Source: Nitrososphaeria archaeon (GTDB taxonomy: Archaea; Thermoproteota; Nitrososphaeria; Conexivisphaerales; UBA164). Taken from it: 64,000 bases of DNA. The stretch's first letter is position 1, and every line of letters begins with the position of its first letter. The DNA lies in the NCBI GenBank assembly GCA_049976505.1, contig JBMFIC010000006.1, forward strand, positions 964 through 64,963, in the 5' to 3' direction. A model generated the notes under the pieces. That model was not told the DNA's origin and did no database searches. It saw only the letters and a list, made by a program, of their open reading frames with translations. Of the stretch, positions 1,510 through 49,100 are shown in pieces. The translations under genes were made by a program, and so were the position numbers.

Positions 1510-2997
1510 AATTAGTGAAAGCCCCGCCTTTTTAGAGCGGGGATGATCGAAGCATAAAACATTTATGAACGTTTTCATACTTTGTTCTCATGGCGATGGC
1601 CGGTCAACTTGAATTCGGTGGGACGCCTGAGCCGACTCCTCAGGCCATACCGGCCGTCGCCGAAAAACAGGTTGTTGAGGTAAGGCCCAGCAACAGAAGA
1701 ACTAACAAAGTGCGCCTGCTGCCGAGGGGAAGCGCTGAAAGGAAGCTCGAAAGGCTCGGAGATCTATTCGCGAAAGCATTCAACGAGCTGAACTACATGA
1801 GAAGGCAGCAGCTCTTCTCAGGACAGAGGATAGACTTAGAGGGCACAGCCAGGGCCGTTTATGAAAAGTACAAGAGCCTGTTAGGTTCGGCCAACGTCCA
1901 GCAGGTGATCAACAAGAACACCGAGGCATGGTCTTCATTCTTCAGCCTGCTGAAGGCAAAGAAGGAGGGAAGGCTTCCGGGCTGGCTCAGGGTTAAGCCT
2001 CCCGGCTACATGAAGGAGGACAGGAAGAGAAGGCTCCTGCTCGTGATAAGGAACGACGGCTACGCCGTTGATGAGCAGAACAGGACTCTCATTCTCAGGC
2101 GTTTCAAGCTCAGGATCCCCTTTGCAGGAAGGCTTCAGTGGTACGGAAAGCAGGGAAGGCTTGAAATATATTACGATGAAACGAAGCAGGCGTGGTACGC
2201 ATCGATCCCGGTGGAGGTTGGCGTAGAAGCCGTAAGGAACATCGTGAAAGGGGAAAGAAAGGAGGTCCAGAGGGAGAAGCCTAAAGGAAACAAAAGCGCC
2301 TCGATCGATCTCGGGATAAACATACTAGCCTCGGTCATTGTTTCCGATGGGACCTGGCTATTATACAGGGGCTCCAGAGCAAAGGAGGACTTCTTCTACA
2401 TGCAGAGAAGGATTTCAGAGATTAGGTCTCTTGAGGACAGAGCGAAAAATCTTAAGCTGAGTGAATGGGCCGAGGAGCTCAGGCTCGAGAGGAGGAGGCT
2501 CGAGGGAAGGCTGAACAGAAGGGTTGCCCACCTGTACAGGACTTTGGCATCACATTTAATTAAGAAGCTATGGTCTCTTGGCGTTTCAGCGATCTACCTT
2601 GGCTATCCGTATGAGATCGCTCAGGATAAGGGAAACAAGCTCACAGAAAATCTGTGGTCATATCGTGAATTGATGGACACCATCGAGCACGAAGCTCAGG
2701 AGTACGGAATGAAAGTGTATGAGGTGATTGAGCACAACACCTCAAGGCTGTGCGCGTATCACGGCGTCGAGGTGACCCGAAGCCCGAGAGGGGTTGTGAA
2801 GTGCCCTCTTGGGCACAGGCTTCATTCAGATCTCAACGGGGCGCTGAACATACTAAGGAAGGCAGCGGGCCTGATAGTCAAAATCATAGCAAAGCCTCTT
2901 TCATACATCGTCATGCACAGCGGAGTAGCTCCCGCTAAAGGGGAGTAACCCCCGAGACCTCGGGAACCCTCGCTATTCAGGGCGGGGAGGAGGTCAG
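1510..2997 (+). mobile_element. IS200/IS605-family, tnpB-only (IS1341-like) element
   Basis: Follows target TTTAC. Left end AAAG plus hairpin CCCCGC..GCGGGG (1522-1542). Right end GAAC plus hairpin, ending GGAGGAGGTCAG. Boundaries supported by two related copies at 45009-45051 and 45696-45848. No tnpA inside. Confidence 0.9.
1590..2948 (+). CDS. tnpB: TnpB RNA-guided endonuclease
   Basis: RuvC-I SIDLGIN, E-x-N-T-S before Zn finger CAYHG...CPLGH, RuvC-III HSDLNGALNI; 452 aa. Confidence 0.92.
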   Translation: MAMAGQLEFGGTPEPTPQAIPAVAEKQVVEVRPSNRRTNKVRLLPRGSAERKLERLGDLFAKAFNELNYMRRQQLFSGQRIDLEGTARAVYEKYKSLLGSANVQQVINKNTEAWSSFFSLLKAKKEGRLPGWLRVKPPGYMKEDRKRRLLLVIRNDGYAVDEQNRTLILRRFKLRIPFAGRLQWYGKQGRLEIYYDETKQAWYASIPVEVGVEAVRNIVKGERKEVQREKPKGNKSASIDLGINILASVIVSDGTWLLYRGSRAKEDFFYMQRRISEIRSLEDRAKNLKLSEWAEELRLERRRLEGRLNRRVAHLYRTLASHLIKKLWSLGVSAIYLGYPYEIAQDKGNKLTENLWSYRELMDTIEHEAQEYGMKVYEVIEHNTSRLCAYHGVEVTRSPRGVVKCPLGHRLHSDLNGALNILRKAAGLIVKIIAKPLSYIVMHSGVAPAKGE

Positions 2998-42666: not shown

Positions 42667-44184
42667 TTAATCGTATAGATGCAGCACCAGCATGAGGGAG
42701 GAGAACTCTAAAGCGCCGCTGAGCACCATTGCGACCAGCGAAGTAAGGACCGGCATTTTAAAGTACTCCAGTATAAAGTAAACTGCAAAGGGAAGGCCCA
42801 CTACGATTCCAGAGGCCAGGTAGCCCGCGGCGGTGAACAGCATGCTCAGGGCTCCTCCACTCTTGTATATCTCCTCAAAGATGATCCCGATCAGAGGCAC
42901 GCTGCTGAGCGGACCCAGAACCCCAAATATGAAGGGCAGAAGCACGACAAATGACACGTGCTTAAGTAGCGCCAGGATCGCTATCGCTGACATAAATATA
43001 TAATAGGATAATACGGTAAGGAGGAGCTTGGGAATAGCTATAGCGGTCCTGCTGATGGGCATGATTCTCAACACCCATGCGCCTCTCGTTTCTGCGTAGT
43101 AGAAGGCAAGAGGGATCATAATAGAAAGAAAGGCAAGCTCGAGGCCCTCCACATCTATCAGGGCGGGTGCGTTTGATGGACTCACCGAGTACCCGCCGGA
43201 AACGAGGGTGCTCGCCACTATAATCAGGACAGTGACAAATGAGGCAACGAGGGATCTCTTCGCGCCCCTCAGATCGGCCATCATCAGGGCTAGCGTTTTG
43301 CTCCTGTAAATTCTCCACCTTACGCTGATCGCCCTGGGCGCCCTGGGCTGGGGGAAGAAAGCTACTGGATACTCTCCTATCAGCCTCCACGCGATCTGCG
43401 GGGCTTTTCTTAAAACCCATGCTGCAGGCAAGATCATCCAAAGAACGGTGAACGCCAGCCCTAGTGGCGTGTAGAGCGATATTATGCTGAAAGGCGGAGC
43501 AAAGAAGAGCTCATCGATCTGGGACTGGCTTAAAAATGAGAGAGCGTTACCAGCATACAGAAACAGAAGGAAGAAGAGCATCGGAAGGCCTCCCAGTATC
43601 CTCACGAGCGTAGAAACCGTCGGTGACCTTCCCCTGGACCAGTAAACGAGATCTATGGACAGGAAAGCAAGAAAGAAGGCTAATGACACTCCGGTCAGCG
43701 CCGCAAGGACGTAAAACGGAGAGCGCAAAATCATCGAGTCAGCTAGGGCTCCCATGAGAACCGATATGAGGGGATAGTCAACCAGCTTTATTATGGACAG
43801 GAGAACTTTCCTCTGTACTTCGTTTTCATCAAGCGGAAGGGTAGCGAGGAAGTCCCTCAGGCTGGTCGTTGCGTAGACCGCATATGAAAGAGGAAGGAGC
43901 AGCATGGATATTGCCAGGCCGCTAAGGCTGAACAGATACGCTACAATGAATGCCGGTCCCATGAAGGGCTTCTGATATGTGCTAGAAGCTGGCCGAAGAT
44001 GGCCGGCGACTCCAAGAACGATAAATACAAAAAGAAATATCCCGGCGATAAGTATCTTCTGAAACCTTATGGTTCTGAAGCTGCGCCTTATGCTGAGGGG
44101 TTTGAAACCGGTCTGTCTCATCGCAGTGTAGGCTAAAACCGAAATCTCCCGGGCTATAGCCTCCTCGAGCGTTATCCTCTTCAT
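42667..44184 (-). CDS. ABC exporter permease
   Basis: About 12 TM segments with two L-x-x-L/M-P-I/L repeats; overlaps the ATPase gene. Confidence 0.7.
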   Translation of the reverse strand: MKRITLEEAIAREISVLAYTAMRQTGFKPLSIRRSFRTIRFQKILIAGIFLFVFIVLGVAGHLRPASSTYQKPFMGPAFIVAYLFSLSGLAISMLLLPLSYAVYATTSLRDFLATLPLDENEVQRKVLLSIIKLVDYPLISVLMGALADSMILRSPFYVLAALTGVSLAFFLAFLSIDLVYWSRGRSPTVSTLVRILGGLPMLFFLLFLYAGNALSFLSQSQIDELFFAPPFSIISLYTPLGLAFTVLWMILPAAWVLRKAPQIAWRLIGEYPVAFFPQPRAPRAISVRWRIYRSKTLALMMADLRGAKRSLVASFVTVLIIVASTLVSGGYSVSPSNAPALIDVEGLELAFLSIMIPLAFYYAETRGAWVLRIMPISRTAIAIPKLLLTVLSYYIFMSAIAILALLKHVSFVVLLPFIFGVLGPLSSVPLIGIIFEEIYKSGGALSMLFTAAGYLASGIVVGLPFAVYFILEYFKMPVLTSLVAMVLSGALEFSSLMLVLHLYD

Positions 44185-44951
44185 AACGCTTCAGTGAGCT
44201 CCCTTATCTCATCCTCGGCATGAATGGCCTTGATGAAGGCATCCTCAAGGGATCCTGCGTTCAGCTGGCTCATTATTTTGTGAGTTTCGCCACTTATCAC
44301 CTCTGAGCCCTTGTTTATTATCATTATTTTATCGCAGATCTTCTCTGCGATTTCCATGATGTGCGTCGAGAACAGCACTGCCCCGCCCTCCCTCTTGTGG
44401 TTCTGTATTATTTCCTTGAATATCCTGGCGGACTTGACGTCCAGCGCATTGAATGGCTCATCGAGTATTAGAAGCTTGGGCCTGTGCATTATGGCGGAGA
44501 TTATTGCAACCTTCTGCCTGTTACCCTGCGAGAGGCTCAGTATGTAGCTATCAAGGAACTCCCTTAAGCCAAAAGCATCCACGAGGTGATCTATCCTGCT
44601 GATATCGTTGACCCCTCTTATTGATGCTACAAGCTCAAGGAACTCCCTCACCTTCAGCGCGTCGAGAACTGCAGGGGTCTCCATCACGGCGCCTATCTGA
44701 TTCAGGAGGGACTTCCTTGGCCTTCCCATTCCCAGCAGATCCACCGTGCCCTCATATGGCACGAGGTTAAGGATCGCCTTGATGGTGGAGGTCTTGCCGG
44801 CACCGTTGGGACCAAGAAGGCCGAAAACCTCTCCCTCGTATATCCTAAATGAAATTCCGTTAACCGCGACCTTCTCCCCATACCTCACCTTAAGATCCTG
44901 GACGCTTAGCACGTACCCTGCCTGCAATTCTGTAGTCCAGTTAGTGGCCAC
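44181..44951 (-). CDS. ABC transporter ATPase
   Basis: GPNGAGKTS, LSQG, LDEP and STH motifs. Confidence 0.93.
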   Translation of the reverse strand: MATNWTTELQAGYVLSVQDLKVRYGEKVAVNGISFRIYEGEVFGLLGPNGAGKTSTIKAILNLVPYEGTVDLLGMGRPRKSLLNQIGAVMETPAVLDALKVREFLELVASIRGVNDISRIDHLVDAFGLREFLDSYILSLSQGNRQKVAIISAIMHRPKLLILDEPFNALDVKSARIFKEIIQNHKREGGAVLFSTHIMEIAEKICDKIMIINKGSEVISGETHKIMSQLNAGSLEDAFIKAIHAEDEIRELTEAL

Positions 44952-45008
44952 AAAATAAATAAACGTTATTCAGGAGGTCTTAGGGTGATGATTTTCCGCC
45001 TAACAAAG

Positions 45009-45051
45009 CTGACCTCCTCCCCGCCCTGAAAAGGTGGGGCTTTAGCTAACT
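45009..45051 (-). mobile_element. 43-bp IS200/IS605 left/right-end hybrid (single-hairpin remnant)
   Basis: Minus strand TTTAC|AGTTAGCTAAAGCCCCACCTTTTCAGGGCGGGGAGGAGGTCAG: the 5' half resembles the left end and the 3' half matches the right end of the element at 1510-2997. Confidence 0.85.
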
Positions 45052-45526
45052 GTAAACATTTGCAATGCGCGTAGCGCTGTAATTTAAACTTAAAAGGAGC
45101 TTTCGGAAATGCAGGAAGGAGCATGGAAAAAGAGACAAAGTGAAAGGTTCACGGAAGGCTTCGGGAAAGCTTAGTGCCATATCGATGATTGAGGTGCAGG
45201 GATTCGTCTACTGTAATAGATACGGCGCTATCGCTTAGCTCTGTTGCGCTTGTAATTAGAAAGGAGCCGCCTGATAGTTCAGCACCTCGGCCTTTAAGAT
45301 GAGGCTTTAATAAATTCCTGGCTTCTTTTAAACATGCAGCCAGGTAATGTGAAATACAAGAAGATCCTTATTATAAAATGCTTTAGGCCTCAAAGCTTCT
45401 TTAATTCTATTCAGGCCAAAGTCCCGCTCACGTTACATGCTAGTTCTATGCGACCTTTAGGTGGTTCCGCCTACTTAACATAGCCAGAAAGCTTTTCACA
45501 GCTATGAAACTTTTTATGGAGGAGTA

Positions 45527-45599
45527 AGCCTCGGGCGGGATTTGAACCCGCGACCTTCCGCTTACGAGGCGGACGCTCTGCCGGCTGAGCTACCGAGGC
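45527..45599 (-). tRNA. tRNA-Thr(CGT)
   Basis: Cloverleaf with GCCTCGG/CCGAGGC acceptor stem, TCCGC-CT-CGT-AA-GCGGA anticodon arm and TTCAAAT T-loop; no encoded CCA. Confidence 0.95.
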
Positions 45600-45675
45600 G
45601 CTCACTAAAACCTAAAATGGAATCCAAATAAAAGCTTTACCCGGCTTGTGCGCCGTCGCAAATCGATTTCAGGGA

Positions 45676-45769
45676 CCATCCTGGATATCTGAGACCTGAC
45701 CTCCTCCCCGCCCTGAAGGGCGAGGGTTCCCGAGGTCTCGGGGGTTACTCCCCTTTAGCGGGAGCTACT
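45676..45769 (-). ncRNA. Stand-alone TnpB omegaRNA (scaffold 45769-45696, guide GTCTCAGATATCCAGGATGG)
   Basis: 72/74 identity to 2924-2997; the homology starts about 26 nt downstream of a TATA box. Confidence 0.72.
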
Positions 45770-45848
45770 GAGCTAATAAACGCCAGGCACATATTTAAGT
45801 TTTTTGTCGTTTTCATTTCCGCCGTAAACGGCGAAGCTTTCAGCTTCT
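45696..45848 (-). mobile_element. 153-bp non-autonomous IS200/IS605 mini-element carrying only left end, promoter and omegaRNA/right end
   Basis: Target TTTAC (plus strand GTAAA 45849-45853); left end AAAG plus hairpin TTCGCCG-TTTA-CGGCGGA; right end ...GGAGGAGGTCAG ending at 45696. Confidence 0.87.
45791..45806 (-). promoter_or_regulatory. BRE/TATA promoter of the mini-element omegaRNA
   Basis: Minus strand CAAAAAAC-TTAAATAT; TATA centre about 45795 predicts a TSS near 45769. Confidence 0.6.
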
Positions 45849-45903
45849 GTAAAAAAATTTAAATAATATTTAAATACAAGTATTTCTACGGCGATTAAGG
45901 ATA

Positions 45904-46146
45904 ATGTCTTCTAAAGTTGACATACTTAAAAATAAATACGTGCCAAAACACATCATCCTAACTAAGGAGGAGGTCGAGGAGGTTCTCAGGAAGTATCATG
46001 CGAAGATCGAGCAGCTCCCAAAGATAAGGGCCACAGACCCAGTGATCAGGGCCATAGGTGCCAAGCCGGGCGACGTGATCAAGATAATTAGGGAGAGCGA
46101 AACGGCGGGCGTTGTTGAGTATTATAGGCTGGTGGTTGAAGAATGA
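45904..46146 (+). CDS. rpoH: RNA polymerase subunit H (Rpo5)
   Basis: VPKH, QLPKI..TDP, GDVIKI.RES and YRLV motifs. Confidence 0.96.
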
Positions 46147-49100
46147 AGTCGGTCTTCGAGAAAAGATGGGCCATCATCAGGAACATCCTTGAGACCGAGG
46201 GGATAGCAAGGCAGCACCTCAACTCCTATAATCAGTTCATAAAGAAGGGGATGCAGAGCATAGTAAACGAAGTCGGGGAGGTTGAGATCGAGTCTCCGCT
46301 TGGCAAGTATAAGATAAAGCTGGGGAAGATCGAAATCGGCAAGCCTAAAGTCGTCGAGCACGACGGCTCGGAGAACTACATCAAGCCCATGGAGGCAAGG
46401 CTGAGAAACCTGACGTACGCGGCTCCGCTCTATCTTGAGATGCAGATAGTTGATTCTGATCCCACTATAAGCAGACCGTTCAGGGTTCACATTGGAAACC
46501 TTCCAGTGATGGTCAAATCTGACGTCTGTGTGCTCAACGGGCTTTCGGAGCAAGAGCTGATAGATCTGGGTGAGGACCCGAACGATCCTGGTGGCTACTT
46601 TATAATAAACGGAAGTGAAAGGATCATCATAGGACTTGAGGACATTTCGCCCAACAAGATACTTGTGGAGAGGGAGAAAAGCGGAACATCGGTTGTTTAC
46701 AGGGCCGTGGTGCACTCCTCAATCGTCGGGTTCAGGTCAAAGGTTGAGATGCTGATAAAGAACGACAACGTGATCTACGTAAAGATCCCGATACTGCCAA
46801 CCGAGGTCCCGTTCGTCATCCTGATGAAGGCCCTGGGCATTACTAAGGATGTGGAAATAGCCAACGCAGTCTCGCCCAGGCCTGAGATTCAGGAGGAGCT
46901 CGTTCCTACCTTTGAGAAGAGCGAAGTGAACACACAGGATGAAGCGATAATGTACATAGGAAACAGGCTGGCTCACGGCCAGGCTGATGAGATAAGGTAC
47001 AAGAGGGCCGAGCAGCTCATTGACGTCTACCTGCTGCCTCATCTCGGGAAGTCTCCCGAATCAAGGCGCGATAAGGCGATGTTCCTGGCCGAGATGGCCA
47101 ACAAGCTGATTCAGCTTAAGCTCGGCTACATCGTGCCTGATGACAGGGACCACTATGGCAACAAGGTCATCAAGTTTGCTGGCGAGCAGCTCGCGGACAT
47201 ATTCAGGACTGCGTTCAAGAACCTGATAAGGGACATGAAGTATCAGCTGGACAGGGCAGGAGGAAGGAAAGGTCCGAACGTCGTGCAGGCGGTTATAAGG
47301 CCAGGCATAATTACCGACAAGATTACCAACGCTATAGCTACCGGCAACTGGGGAAGGGGCAGGGTTGGCATCACCCAGCTGCTCGACAGGACGAACAGGC
47401 TTTCAACTATAAGCCATCTGAGGAGGATCCAGTCCCCGCTAAGCAGGACCCAGCCGAACTTTGAGGCAAGGGAGCTGCACGGAACGCAGTTCGGTAGGAT
47501 ATGCCCCGTTGAGACCCCCGAGGGCAGCAACTGTGGCCTGGTAAAGAACCTCGCGCTCACGGCGGTCATATCTGTCGCTCACGACTTCGAGCCCCTAAAG
47601 GAGAAGATACTGCCGGTCCTCACAGGAAAGGGCGATAAGGTGTTCCTCGATGGAAGGTTCCTCGGCTACACCGATGCCGAGAAGACCGCCAAGAGGCTCA
47701 GGGAGATGAGGAGGAACGGCGAGCTGCCCTACGACGTCAGCATTTCGGTCTACTATCCTGCAGACCCGCGTGGTGAAAGAAGGCTAATAATAAGCGCCAA
47801 CGCCGGAAGGGTTCTGAGGCCGCTAATAGTGGTTGAGAGGGGCAAGCCGAAGCTCACCGATGAGCACATAGAGAAGCTTGAGAACGGCGAGATCACGTGG
47901 AGGGACCTCCTGAGGATGGGCGTCATCGAGCTTCTGGACGCAGATGAGGAGGACAACATGCTGGTTGCCGTTGATGAATATCACATATCGAACGAGACAA
48001 CCCACATGGAGATCTACCCGCCTGCAATACTCGGCGCAGTTGCCTCCATAATACCCTACATCGAGTACAATCAGTCACCCAGGAACACTTACGAGGCGGC
48101 GATGGCCAAGCAGGCCCTCGGATTCAGCGTAGCGAACATAAATCAGGCATTGTACGTGAGAGGACACCTTCTCGAGTACCCGCAGAAGCCTCTGGTCACA
48201 ACCAAGGCGTTCAAGCTTCTGAACCTCGATGAGGCTCCTATAGGGTTCAACGCGGTAGTAGCGGTCATAAGCTTTGAGGGCTACAACATAGAGGACGCAA
48301 TAATACTCAACAGGGCCAGCATCGAAAGAGGCCTCGGAAGATCCTACTTCTACAGGCTGTACGAGGCTGAGGCGCAGCAGTACCTCGGAGGAGTGAGGGA
48401 CAGGTTCGAGGTGCCGCAGCCTGAGAGCAACGTGAGGGGATACAAGGGAGAGAAGTACTACCGTAACCTTCAGTCAGATGGCGTTGCTTATCCCAACGCG
48501 GAGGTCAAGGGGGGAGACGTGCTCATAGCTAGGCTCAGCCCGCCGAGGTTCAGCGAGGAGTACAAGGGAATAGAGATCAAGGGACTTTACATGAGGGACA
48601 CCTCGGTCTCGATGCGTCCTAGCGAGAGCGGAGTTGTTGACACGGTTGTAATGACGGAGAGCGTTGAGGGAAACAGGATGTACAAGGTCAGGGTTAGGGA
48701 TCACAGGATACCTGAGCTCGGCGACAAGTTCGCCTCCCGGCACGGCCAGAAGGGAGTTGTGGGAATGATAGTTGACCCTGAAGACATGCCATATACCGAG
48801 GACGGAGTCATACCCGACATCATTATCAACCCCCATGCTTTCCCATCAAGGATGACGGTGGGCCAGTTCCTTGAATCGATAGCCGGGAAGGCAGCTGCCC
48901 TGAGGGGCAGGGAGGTGGACGGAACCCCGTTCGAGGGGGAGGACGTCAAGTCCCTTGGAGAGATACTCAAGCAGTATGGCTTCGCCCCAACCGGAAAGGA
49001 GGTTATGTACGATGGCGTGACCGGCAGGAAGTTTGAGGCTCAGATATTCATAGGAGTGGTCTACTATCAGAAGCTGCACCACATGGTCGCGGACAAGATA

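Follow-up and report, generated by a model that had tools for sequence, protein, structure and literature searches.

For standalone omega-RNAs, Altae-Tran and colleagues cite the 2021 OMEGA paper. The available text of their own study describes mobilised standalone omega-RNAs that have neither effector nor transposase, and these were shown to work in trans (Altae-Tran et al. 2023). Similarly, the accessible part of a preprint reports that PATEs often encode omega-RNAs dependent on TnpB in trans (Meers et al. 2023). Related RNAs have been previously reported in archaea, in papers of which excerpts were available. A PATE RNA of Halobacterium (VNG_R0052) is expressed, its overexpression improved growth, and a UUCA end hairpin was noted in HgcC (Gomes-Filho et al. 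2015). In Pyrococcus, RNAs arise from intergenic repeats resembling the 3' end of tnpB; they start 22 nt past a BRE/TATA box, and copies without such a box are not expressed (Phok et al. 2011). In the excerpts available, ISDra2 TnpB needs an omega-RNA scaffold of 116 nt; this folds into four stems, and the partner strand of its pseudoknot is some 100 nt upstream. Terms for orphan or PATE elements are absent from the available text of a 2025 paper on circular archaeal omega-RNAs.

Here we describe a locus of this kind in a 64,000-nt stretch of archaeal DNA (the window), which belongs to a genome (G000) of 1.32 Mb in 63 contigs that is 92% complete. The element at 45848-45696 is an ORF-less IS200/IS605 offshoot with transposon ends, a promoter-like box and a guide-RNA module (Table 1); we refer to it and its copies as minis. 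An earlier note on this DNA had described a 153-bp element with a TTTAC target, a TCAG right boundary and a differing flank behind it; the element found here, on the minus strand after TTTAC (45853-45849), agrees with these statements. No ORF of at least 30 aa lies within the 153 nt. The left end reads AGAAGCTGAAAG, then the hairpin CTTCGCCG/TTTA/CGGCGGAA (8 pairs including one T.G, with a 4-nt loop), which by analogy with IS608 would be a TnpA-binding element, then the box AAAAAACTTAAATAT. The left hairpin is followed by an A-rich stretch with CTTAAATA, a 21-nt spacer and the 74-nt block 45769-45696 that ends in TCAG, and both subterminal hairpins are present when the mini is folded as DNA. 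TTTAC also precedes the window's tnpB element. The neighbours are tRNA-Thr(CGT) at 45599-45527 (-) and rpoH at 45904 (+). The A/T-rich rpoH-rpoB promoter region (45854-45903), kept in five relatives, lies 5 nt from the mini and was left intact by its insertion.

Table 1. Features of the mini and of the window's tnpB element (window positions)
Feature	Position	Strand	Basis
Predicted TAM and insertion target TTTAC (core TTAC)	45849..45853	-	17/19 minis after TTAC
Mini IS200/IS605 element, PATE/MITE type, 153 nt, ORF-less	45696..45848	-	19-copy family, sharp boundaries, unrelated flanks
Left end: 12 nt up to AAAG and imperfect hairpin	45817..45848	-	Pairing across 19 minis
BRE/TATA-like box	45790..45804	-	CTTAAATA at 45799-45792; promoter prediction
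Predicted transcription start, first base of 74-nt block	45769..45769	-	Inferred from box spacing
Scaffold hairpin S1	45744..45768	-	Covariation across 78 sequences
S2 stem CCC/GGG; loop with GACCTC (45737-45732), pseudoknot 5' strand	45729..45742	-	Covariation; loop pairs with 45703-45698
GAAC and subterminal right-end hairpin S3 (UUCA loop)	45706..45729	-	Covariation; hairpin recurs in genome
GAGGTC, pseudoknot 3' strand, overlapping terminal TCAG cleavage end	45696..45703	-	Covariation, conservation
Flank as putative guide, assumed length 16-20 nt	45676..45695	-	Inferred from position
tnpB-only element, source of compatible nuclease (tnpB 1590-2948)	1510..2997	+	Pfam matches, RuvC motifs

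As far as the published descriptions are available, the mini is like the standalone omega-RNAs and the PATE-like elements of Geobacillus stearothermophilus IS605 in having ends and a guide scaffold and no protein gene, in having compatible TnpB and TnpA encoded in its genome, and in drawing its guide from the flank. Unlike them, it is archaeal, it has a BRE/TATA-like box set at the first base of the 74-nt fold, and it is known from sequence. It also resembles VNG_R0052 of Halobacterium and sRk48/52 and sRkB/C of Pyrococcus abyssi in being an ORF-less intergenic repeat like the 3' end of tnpB, and it has the UUCA-loop end hairpin in common with these RNAs; the mini was set beside them by their descriptions in the excerpts rather than by sequence comparison. 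According to the same excerpts, those RNAs were detected experimentally, are 130-180 nt long, bind L7Ae in some cases, and predate the description of TnpB function. Compared with the ISDra2 omega-RNA in the excerpts available, the mini has the same derivation from the right end, the guide after the end, a hairpin adjacent to the guide and a pseudoknot of the terminal bases; the conserved fold of the mini is 74 nt, and the pseudoknot partner, part of a hairpin loop, is 29 nt upstream.

At gathering thresholds, Rfam returned tRNAs only. With a relaxed threshold, HgcC (RF00062) aligned with the mini end to end (1-130 of 130; 38.4 bits, E 1e-7, 231-nt search), and 10 of the 19 minis of this genome matched at E ≤1e-3 with 28.6-38.8 bits, below the gathering score of 50. 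Because the scores remain under the 50-bit gathering score, we do not assign the mini to HgcC. The match takes in the left-end hairpin and GAUGA through GGAAC, the end hairpin and AGGAGGUCAG, where the consensus is nearly letter-identical; the middle part of the mini (S1 and the pseudoknot) is unmatched by the model. Since the alignment nevertheless runs end to end, HgcC seems to be a mini element of this kind too. A second family, sot0042 (RF02656), reached 22.8 bits against a gathering score of 88, on the end hairpin only. The function of HgcC is listed as unknown in the available text of the literature consulted, and in the literature searched HgcC and TnpB were named together in a single paper, of 2015. 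A guide-only element is in itself nothing novel: the published texts available already describe trans-acting standalone omega-RNAs, PATE RNAs expressed in archaea, and intergenic RNAs like tnpB 3' ends with BRE/TATA boxes. The mini is a real, multi-copy archaeal addition to a published kind of element.

A blastn search of the genome with the 74-nt block gave 70 matches, which were classed by eye into 19 minis of ~155 nt, 15 tnpB-linked right ends (some of them truncated at a contig edge), 11 micro-elements of 43-48 nt, 5 right ends of a second, tnpA-tnpB element type with only the last 36 nt in common, 6 left-end hairpins of tnpB elements, and 14 degenerate or other matches. When the 19 minis were aligned, their boundaries were sharp and flank identity fell to 0.26-0.30, the random level. 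The bases 3' of the right end differ between minis and contain no fixed TTAC, that is, no target duplication, and T occupies position -5 in 12 of 19. For all 19, the 20-nt flank 3' of the right end is unique in the genome, with other matches at chance level. Imperfect subterminal hairpins without terminal inverted repeats were found at both ends, with pairing across the 19 minis of 88.6% in the left-end and 89.4% in the right-end hairpin. The BLASTN count of ORF-less copies proposed earlier thus yielded 19 minis with unrelated flanks and a TTAC target. The lack of an ORF, the 19 copies and the TTAC target support the earlier description of a protein-free IS200/IS605 derivative, and the mini is almost certainly a PATE of the TTAC/TCAG IS200/IS605 family.

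One of the micro-elements of 43-48 nt lies in the window (45009-45051 on the minus strand, with TTTAC at 45052-45056), and 10 more are spread over the genome (for example C12:20171, C15:7557 and C3:40052). They begin with 12 nt from the start of a left end of tnpB type, finishing in AAAG, continue with one hairpin and close with the last 10 nt of the right end including TCAG; the right-end GAAC is lacking. These micro-elements may be recombination scars between near-identical left- and right-end hairpins rather than mobile units. We had considered them as proof that TnpA needs the end hairpin alone and dropped this argument, since only the left-end AAAG is present and they are possibly such scars.

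The 74-nt block of the mini (45769-45696) is 72/74 identical to the window's tnpB right end at 2924-2997 (blastn E 1e-30), as had been noted before, and 74/74 identical to two further tnpB-linked right ends (C5:544 and C10:45311). The tnpB copy of the window differs at two positions, both at the top of the end hairpin, where the mini version is better paired. The earlier note had also placed the start of homology 26 nt past the TATA box. This stands against the tnpB copy of the window and fails for another tnpB right-end subfamily (C2:149552, C13:31673, C3:59571 and C5:544), with which the similarity of the mini extends from -74 to about -97, directly 3' of the TATA-like box. The coincidence of homology start and transcription start therefore depends partly on the tnpB copy compared. 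The left end of the mini resembles in layout that of the tnpB copy C3:58064, not that of the window copy, and this resemblance to another tnpB subfamily explains why the left end had appeared diverged. Combined with the similarity to about -97, this likeness gives a mini composed of ~57 nt of left end and ~97 nt of right end, and internal deletion of an IS608-like IS200/IS605 element of the TTAC/TCAG type would have produced it.

For the TATA box of the mini there are two candidate homologues, the tnpB promoter in the left end of C3:58064 and the CTTTCATA of tnpB 3' ends. Copies of tnpB carry the conserved CTTTCATA at about -100 from the right end (window 2898-2905), inside the 3' coding region; its distance to the right end is 100 nt, versus 102-104 nt for CTTAAATA in the minis. 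In tnpB, CTTTCATA could be a weak internal guide-RNA promoter that is constrained by coding, and the minis match the promoter consensus more closely than it does at the same place.

That consensus was taken from the genome itself. In the regions preceding 659 long ORFs, TATA-like 8-mers are most frequent at -32..-29 relative to the ATG (29 versus 0-7 in other bins), and the frequent words at the peak are AAAG or AACG followed by TTTA or TTAA. Among the 19 minis, the 8-mer CTTAAATA is exact in 10, has one mismatch in 5 and two mismatches in 4. Counting 30 nt from the start of the 8-mer puts the predicted start at -69 to -75 (median -73) in the 19 minis, and at -74, the first base of S1, in the mini at 45848-45696. 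The promoter-like box proposed earlier thus has a spacing that fits the genome's own promoters, and transcription of the mini roughly as proposed is, in our estimate, somewhat more likely than not. A look-up of sequencing runs for window positions 43500-48500 returned none, of RNA or otherwise.

The fold of the 74-nt block was examined in an alignment of 78 sequences, comprising the 19 minis and 13 tnpB-linked ends of this genome and 46 distinct ends from relatives. For S1, the pseudoknot and the end hairpin together, 93.2% of cells were paired versus 88.6% after shuffling (0/500 shuffles reached the observed value), and both-side changes occurred in 73 cells versus 21.8 expected. Controls in which the partner was slid by 1-3 columns gave 45-57% paired. 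One S1 pair occurs as U-A (41), A-U (18) and G-C (5), and a G.U pair of S1 is kept in 76/78 sequences; the outer S2 pair is CG in 41, UG in 24 and UA in 13. The end hairpin S3, which recurs in the tnpB and tnpA-tnpB elements of the genome, has both-side changes in 6 of its 8 pairs. In the GACCUC/GAGGUC helix, U-A is replaced by C-G in 8 sequences and C-G by A-U or U-A in 2, so that the pairing proposed in the earlier note is backed by compensatory changes in relatives. Because the terminal scaffold bases, next to the guide, pair with the loop of the short S2 stem, this is a true pseudoknot. Furthermore, the covarying positions lie outside TCAG, and together with the kept G.U pair in S1 this favours a constraint at the RNA level on the minus strand.

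When a consensus fold was computed for 24 diverse tnpB-linked ends, each 190 nt long, 20/20 predicted pairs fell within the last 74 nt and none further upstream, in line with the earlier suggestion of a naturally minimal scaffold of about 74 nt. The prediction supports, without proving, retention of the entire conserved fold by the mini, and the 74-nt "minimal scaffold" is a reasonable, partly supported hypothesis. We also considered a distal pseudoknot partner as in ISDra2. The candidate, GCCTC at -104..-100, could pair with the 3' end and is kept in the tnpB copies of G000; it is absent from the minis and not kept in relatives. As the proximal partner covaries and the distal GCCTC is unconserved in relatives, the proximal partner is preferred.

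The proteins that such an element would need are encoded in the genome. The window TnpB matches Pfam OrfB_IS605 (5e-23) and the Cas12f1-like TNB (5e-11), and its RuvC motifs IDLG, IEHEA and HSDLNGALNI align to solved relatives. Uninterrupted TnpB copies (452-aa matches) are found on C6 and C4, plus one at C3:91222 with 82% identity; the remaining copies are split or cut by contig ends. The tnpB copy at C3:91137-92713 has an internal repeat of ~68 nt; tblastn nevertheless aligns it in one piece, in frame, over 480 columns. The Y1 transposase domain (PF01797) has three strong loci (136-145 bits), of which only the TnpA at C8:10109-10465 combines an uninterrupted frame with the HUH motif and the tyrosine; in the C2 TnpA a Tyr replaces the first His of HUH, and the C17 TnpA has a TAA stop. 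The tnpA-tnpB (IS605-type) elements are at C2:139422-141113, C8:10109-11800 and C17:3-347. Their TnpB is ~40% identical to that of the window, their right-end RNA region is long and different, their left ends have CAAG before the hairpin, and their targets are TGAC/TAAC, not TTAC, the target that the tnpB elements of the genome share with the minis. Their right ends have the end hairpin and TCAG (last 36 nt) in common with the mini. With the IS608 mechanism as the basis for the assignment, this common hairpin and TCAG make it plausible that a single TnpA serves all element classes. Both TnpA, as the C8 copy with intact motifs, and TnpB, as the uninterrupted copies on C6, C4 and at C3:91222, are thus available in trans, as the earlier note had assumed.

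The mechanism proposed in that note, spelled out for this genome, would run as follows. The TnpA of C8:10109-10465 would move the mini in trans as single-stranded DNA. The BRE/TATA-like box would start an RNA at ~45769, consisting of the 74-nt scaffold and then the flank as guide. A resident TnpB would bind this RNA in trans and cut the empty donor joint (TTAC + flank), and recombination with a filled copy would then restore the mini.

We next consider relatives. The scaffold was found in 14 of the 41 genomes searched (counting G000), including 8/8 other genomes of the genus, and relatives of the window TnpB occur in MAGs labelled Conexivisphaerales or Nitrososphaerales. G001, G004, G031 and G025 contain minis that differ in their junction or left end. 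When their sequences were read by eye, most of the G001, G004 and G031-type minis had an A/T-rich box ~20-24 nt before S1; at least one G004 copy, L090, is without it. The G031-type minis (G031, G025) carry the scaffold variant of the G031 tnpB-linked ends, with an inserted hairpin and GACCCC/GGGGTC. These copies (L122 and L125 in G031, L128 in G025) are minis of ~175 nt from another family of the order, with a different left end and a TGAT-like target; the extra hairpin, 17 nt long, follows the pseudoknot strand, and the GACCCC/GGGGTC helix is compensated. The GCTCAGTAGC junction is common to these three copies and the minis of this genome.

An empty allele of the mini was also sought, as the earlier note had proposed. 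No exact TTAC-flank joint was found: the five relatives with a readable tRNA-Thr/rpoH spacer (G001, G003, G005, G007 and G008) have no mini there, and their spacers are too diverged. For mini C6:67090 the spacers in relatives were likewise too diverged for an exact joint, for mini C5:12639 only one flank matched, and the exact 26-nt flank pattern had no match in metagenome contigs. Separately, two pairs of loci in G000 and G004, two different species, share right flanks (~91-95%, >250 nt), namely C13:26469 with G004:C13:10411 and C2:20661 with G004:C7:262, and hold different members of the family. One pair is a mini and a 5'-truncated tnpB remnant; the other consists of minis of different subtype, the G004 one lying behind another element's left-end fragment. 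This suggests re-use of the site or turnover by right-end recombination.

Within the minis alone (n=19), pairing was 89-90% versus 88.7-89.5% after shuffling, with double changes at only 4-5 pairs. Conservation along the element is nearly flat at 0.70-0.84, with the promoter region (0.73) among the lowest and the GAGGTC/TCAG end (45696..45703) the best conserved segment at 0.94 identity. S1 has a 4-nt deletion common to two minis and an uncompensated mismatch common to three, the pseudoknot has a mismatch in four minis, and the TATA box too has decayed in some copies. For 17 of 19 minis, the 74-nt block is matched at least as well by the nearest other mini as by the nearest tnpB-linked end, and the blocks carry no mini-specific changes. 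The mini at 45848-45696 is a mosaic, with a right end that is 74/74 tnpB-linked and a left half that reaches at most 0.91 to any other mini, which fits gene conversion. Four gamma-type minis have left halves (0.86-0.92) that are better kept than their scaffolds (0.70-0.82 in three).

Weak covariation, flat conservation, decayed copies, scaffold blocks free of mini-specific changes and the mosaic all speak for a MITE that is or was moved by TnpA and inert otherwise, its likeness to the right end resulting from descent, the needs of TnpA and perhaps gene conversion, and any RNA being without a role. By analogy with IS608, however, about the last 35 nt should suffice for TnpA, and still S1 and the pseudoknot are retained, and this in every type of mini (the 19 of G000 and those of G001, G004, G031 and G025). 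The A/T-rich box before S1 in most minis, at least L090 excepted, is also against it, as is the finding that G031-type minis share their scaffold variant with the tnpB-linked ends of G031; in addition, the available texts describe counterparts in other archaea that are expressed. On balance we regard an inert MITE as unlikely.

All 18 placeable minis are intergenic, and 11 of them are oriented towards the adjacent ORF or tRNA, with eight of these at 4-66 nt from the neighbour's start; the mini at 45848-45696 points towards tRNA-Thr, 96 nt off. Such an arrangement could mean that the minis act on the host, as mobile promoters or 5' leaders, or as small RNAs independent of TnpB, for example by binding L7Ae, as some Pyrococcus RNAs of this kind are described to do in the available text; the growth benefit described, in the excerpts, for the overexpressed Halobacterium RNA would fit as well. 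However, 11 of 18 is no departure from random orientation, the other 7 being convergent with their neighbour, and tRNA-Thr has kept its own A/T-rich box in the spacer. We regard a role directed at the host as quite improbable. A further reading, in which the mini RNA binds TnpB as a competitor or decoy and dilutes the guides of the tnpB elements without protecting the mini, could draw on the 19 minis versus ~15 tnpB-linked ends in the assembly and on their closer match to the promoter consensus than that of CTTTCATA in tnpB copies, but a bound RNA with a flank guide would protect its own site too, and we consider this reading very far-fetched.

Taken together, the mechanism of the earlier note, with movement by TnpA and guide use by TnpB, is the most likely reading of the sequences. 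In its favour we counted the covariation, the promoter spacing, the 19-copy family, the factors available in trans and the published precedents. Against it we counted the weak covariation within minis, the flat conservation, the damaged copies, the 116-nt scaffold of ISDra2, the better-kept left halves of the gamma-type minis and the GCCTC at -104..-100. The complete chain of TnpA mobilisation, own transcription and use by TnpB in trans would have about an even chance of being right, and for the use of the mini RNA by TnpB in trans, taken as a separate step, we would go to even or slightly below. A wider proposal, in which the 74-nt module would be the complete natural scaffold of this archaeal TnpB clade, much below the 116 nt of ISDra2, the minis its guide genes and HgcC a standalone omega-RNA transposon, is put forward tentatively and with more doubt than confidence.

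The biological principle of a guide-only mobile element is already in print. The sub-threshold, end-to-end match suggests a function for the HgcC family. If the RNA is made and used, the mini would be a clean natural example in which a guide-only transposon relies on two proteins from other loci, and its compact 74-nt scaffold, from a probably thermophilic lineage, could be of interest for shrinking TnpB editors. If the wider proposal is true, the minis of this genome would be guide genes with promoters of their own, more numerous than the nuclease genes, with one TnpB served by at least 19 dispersed guides.
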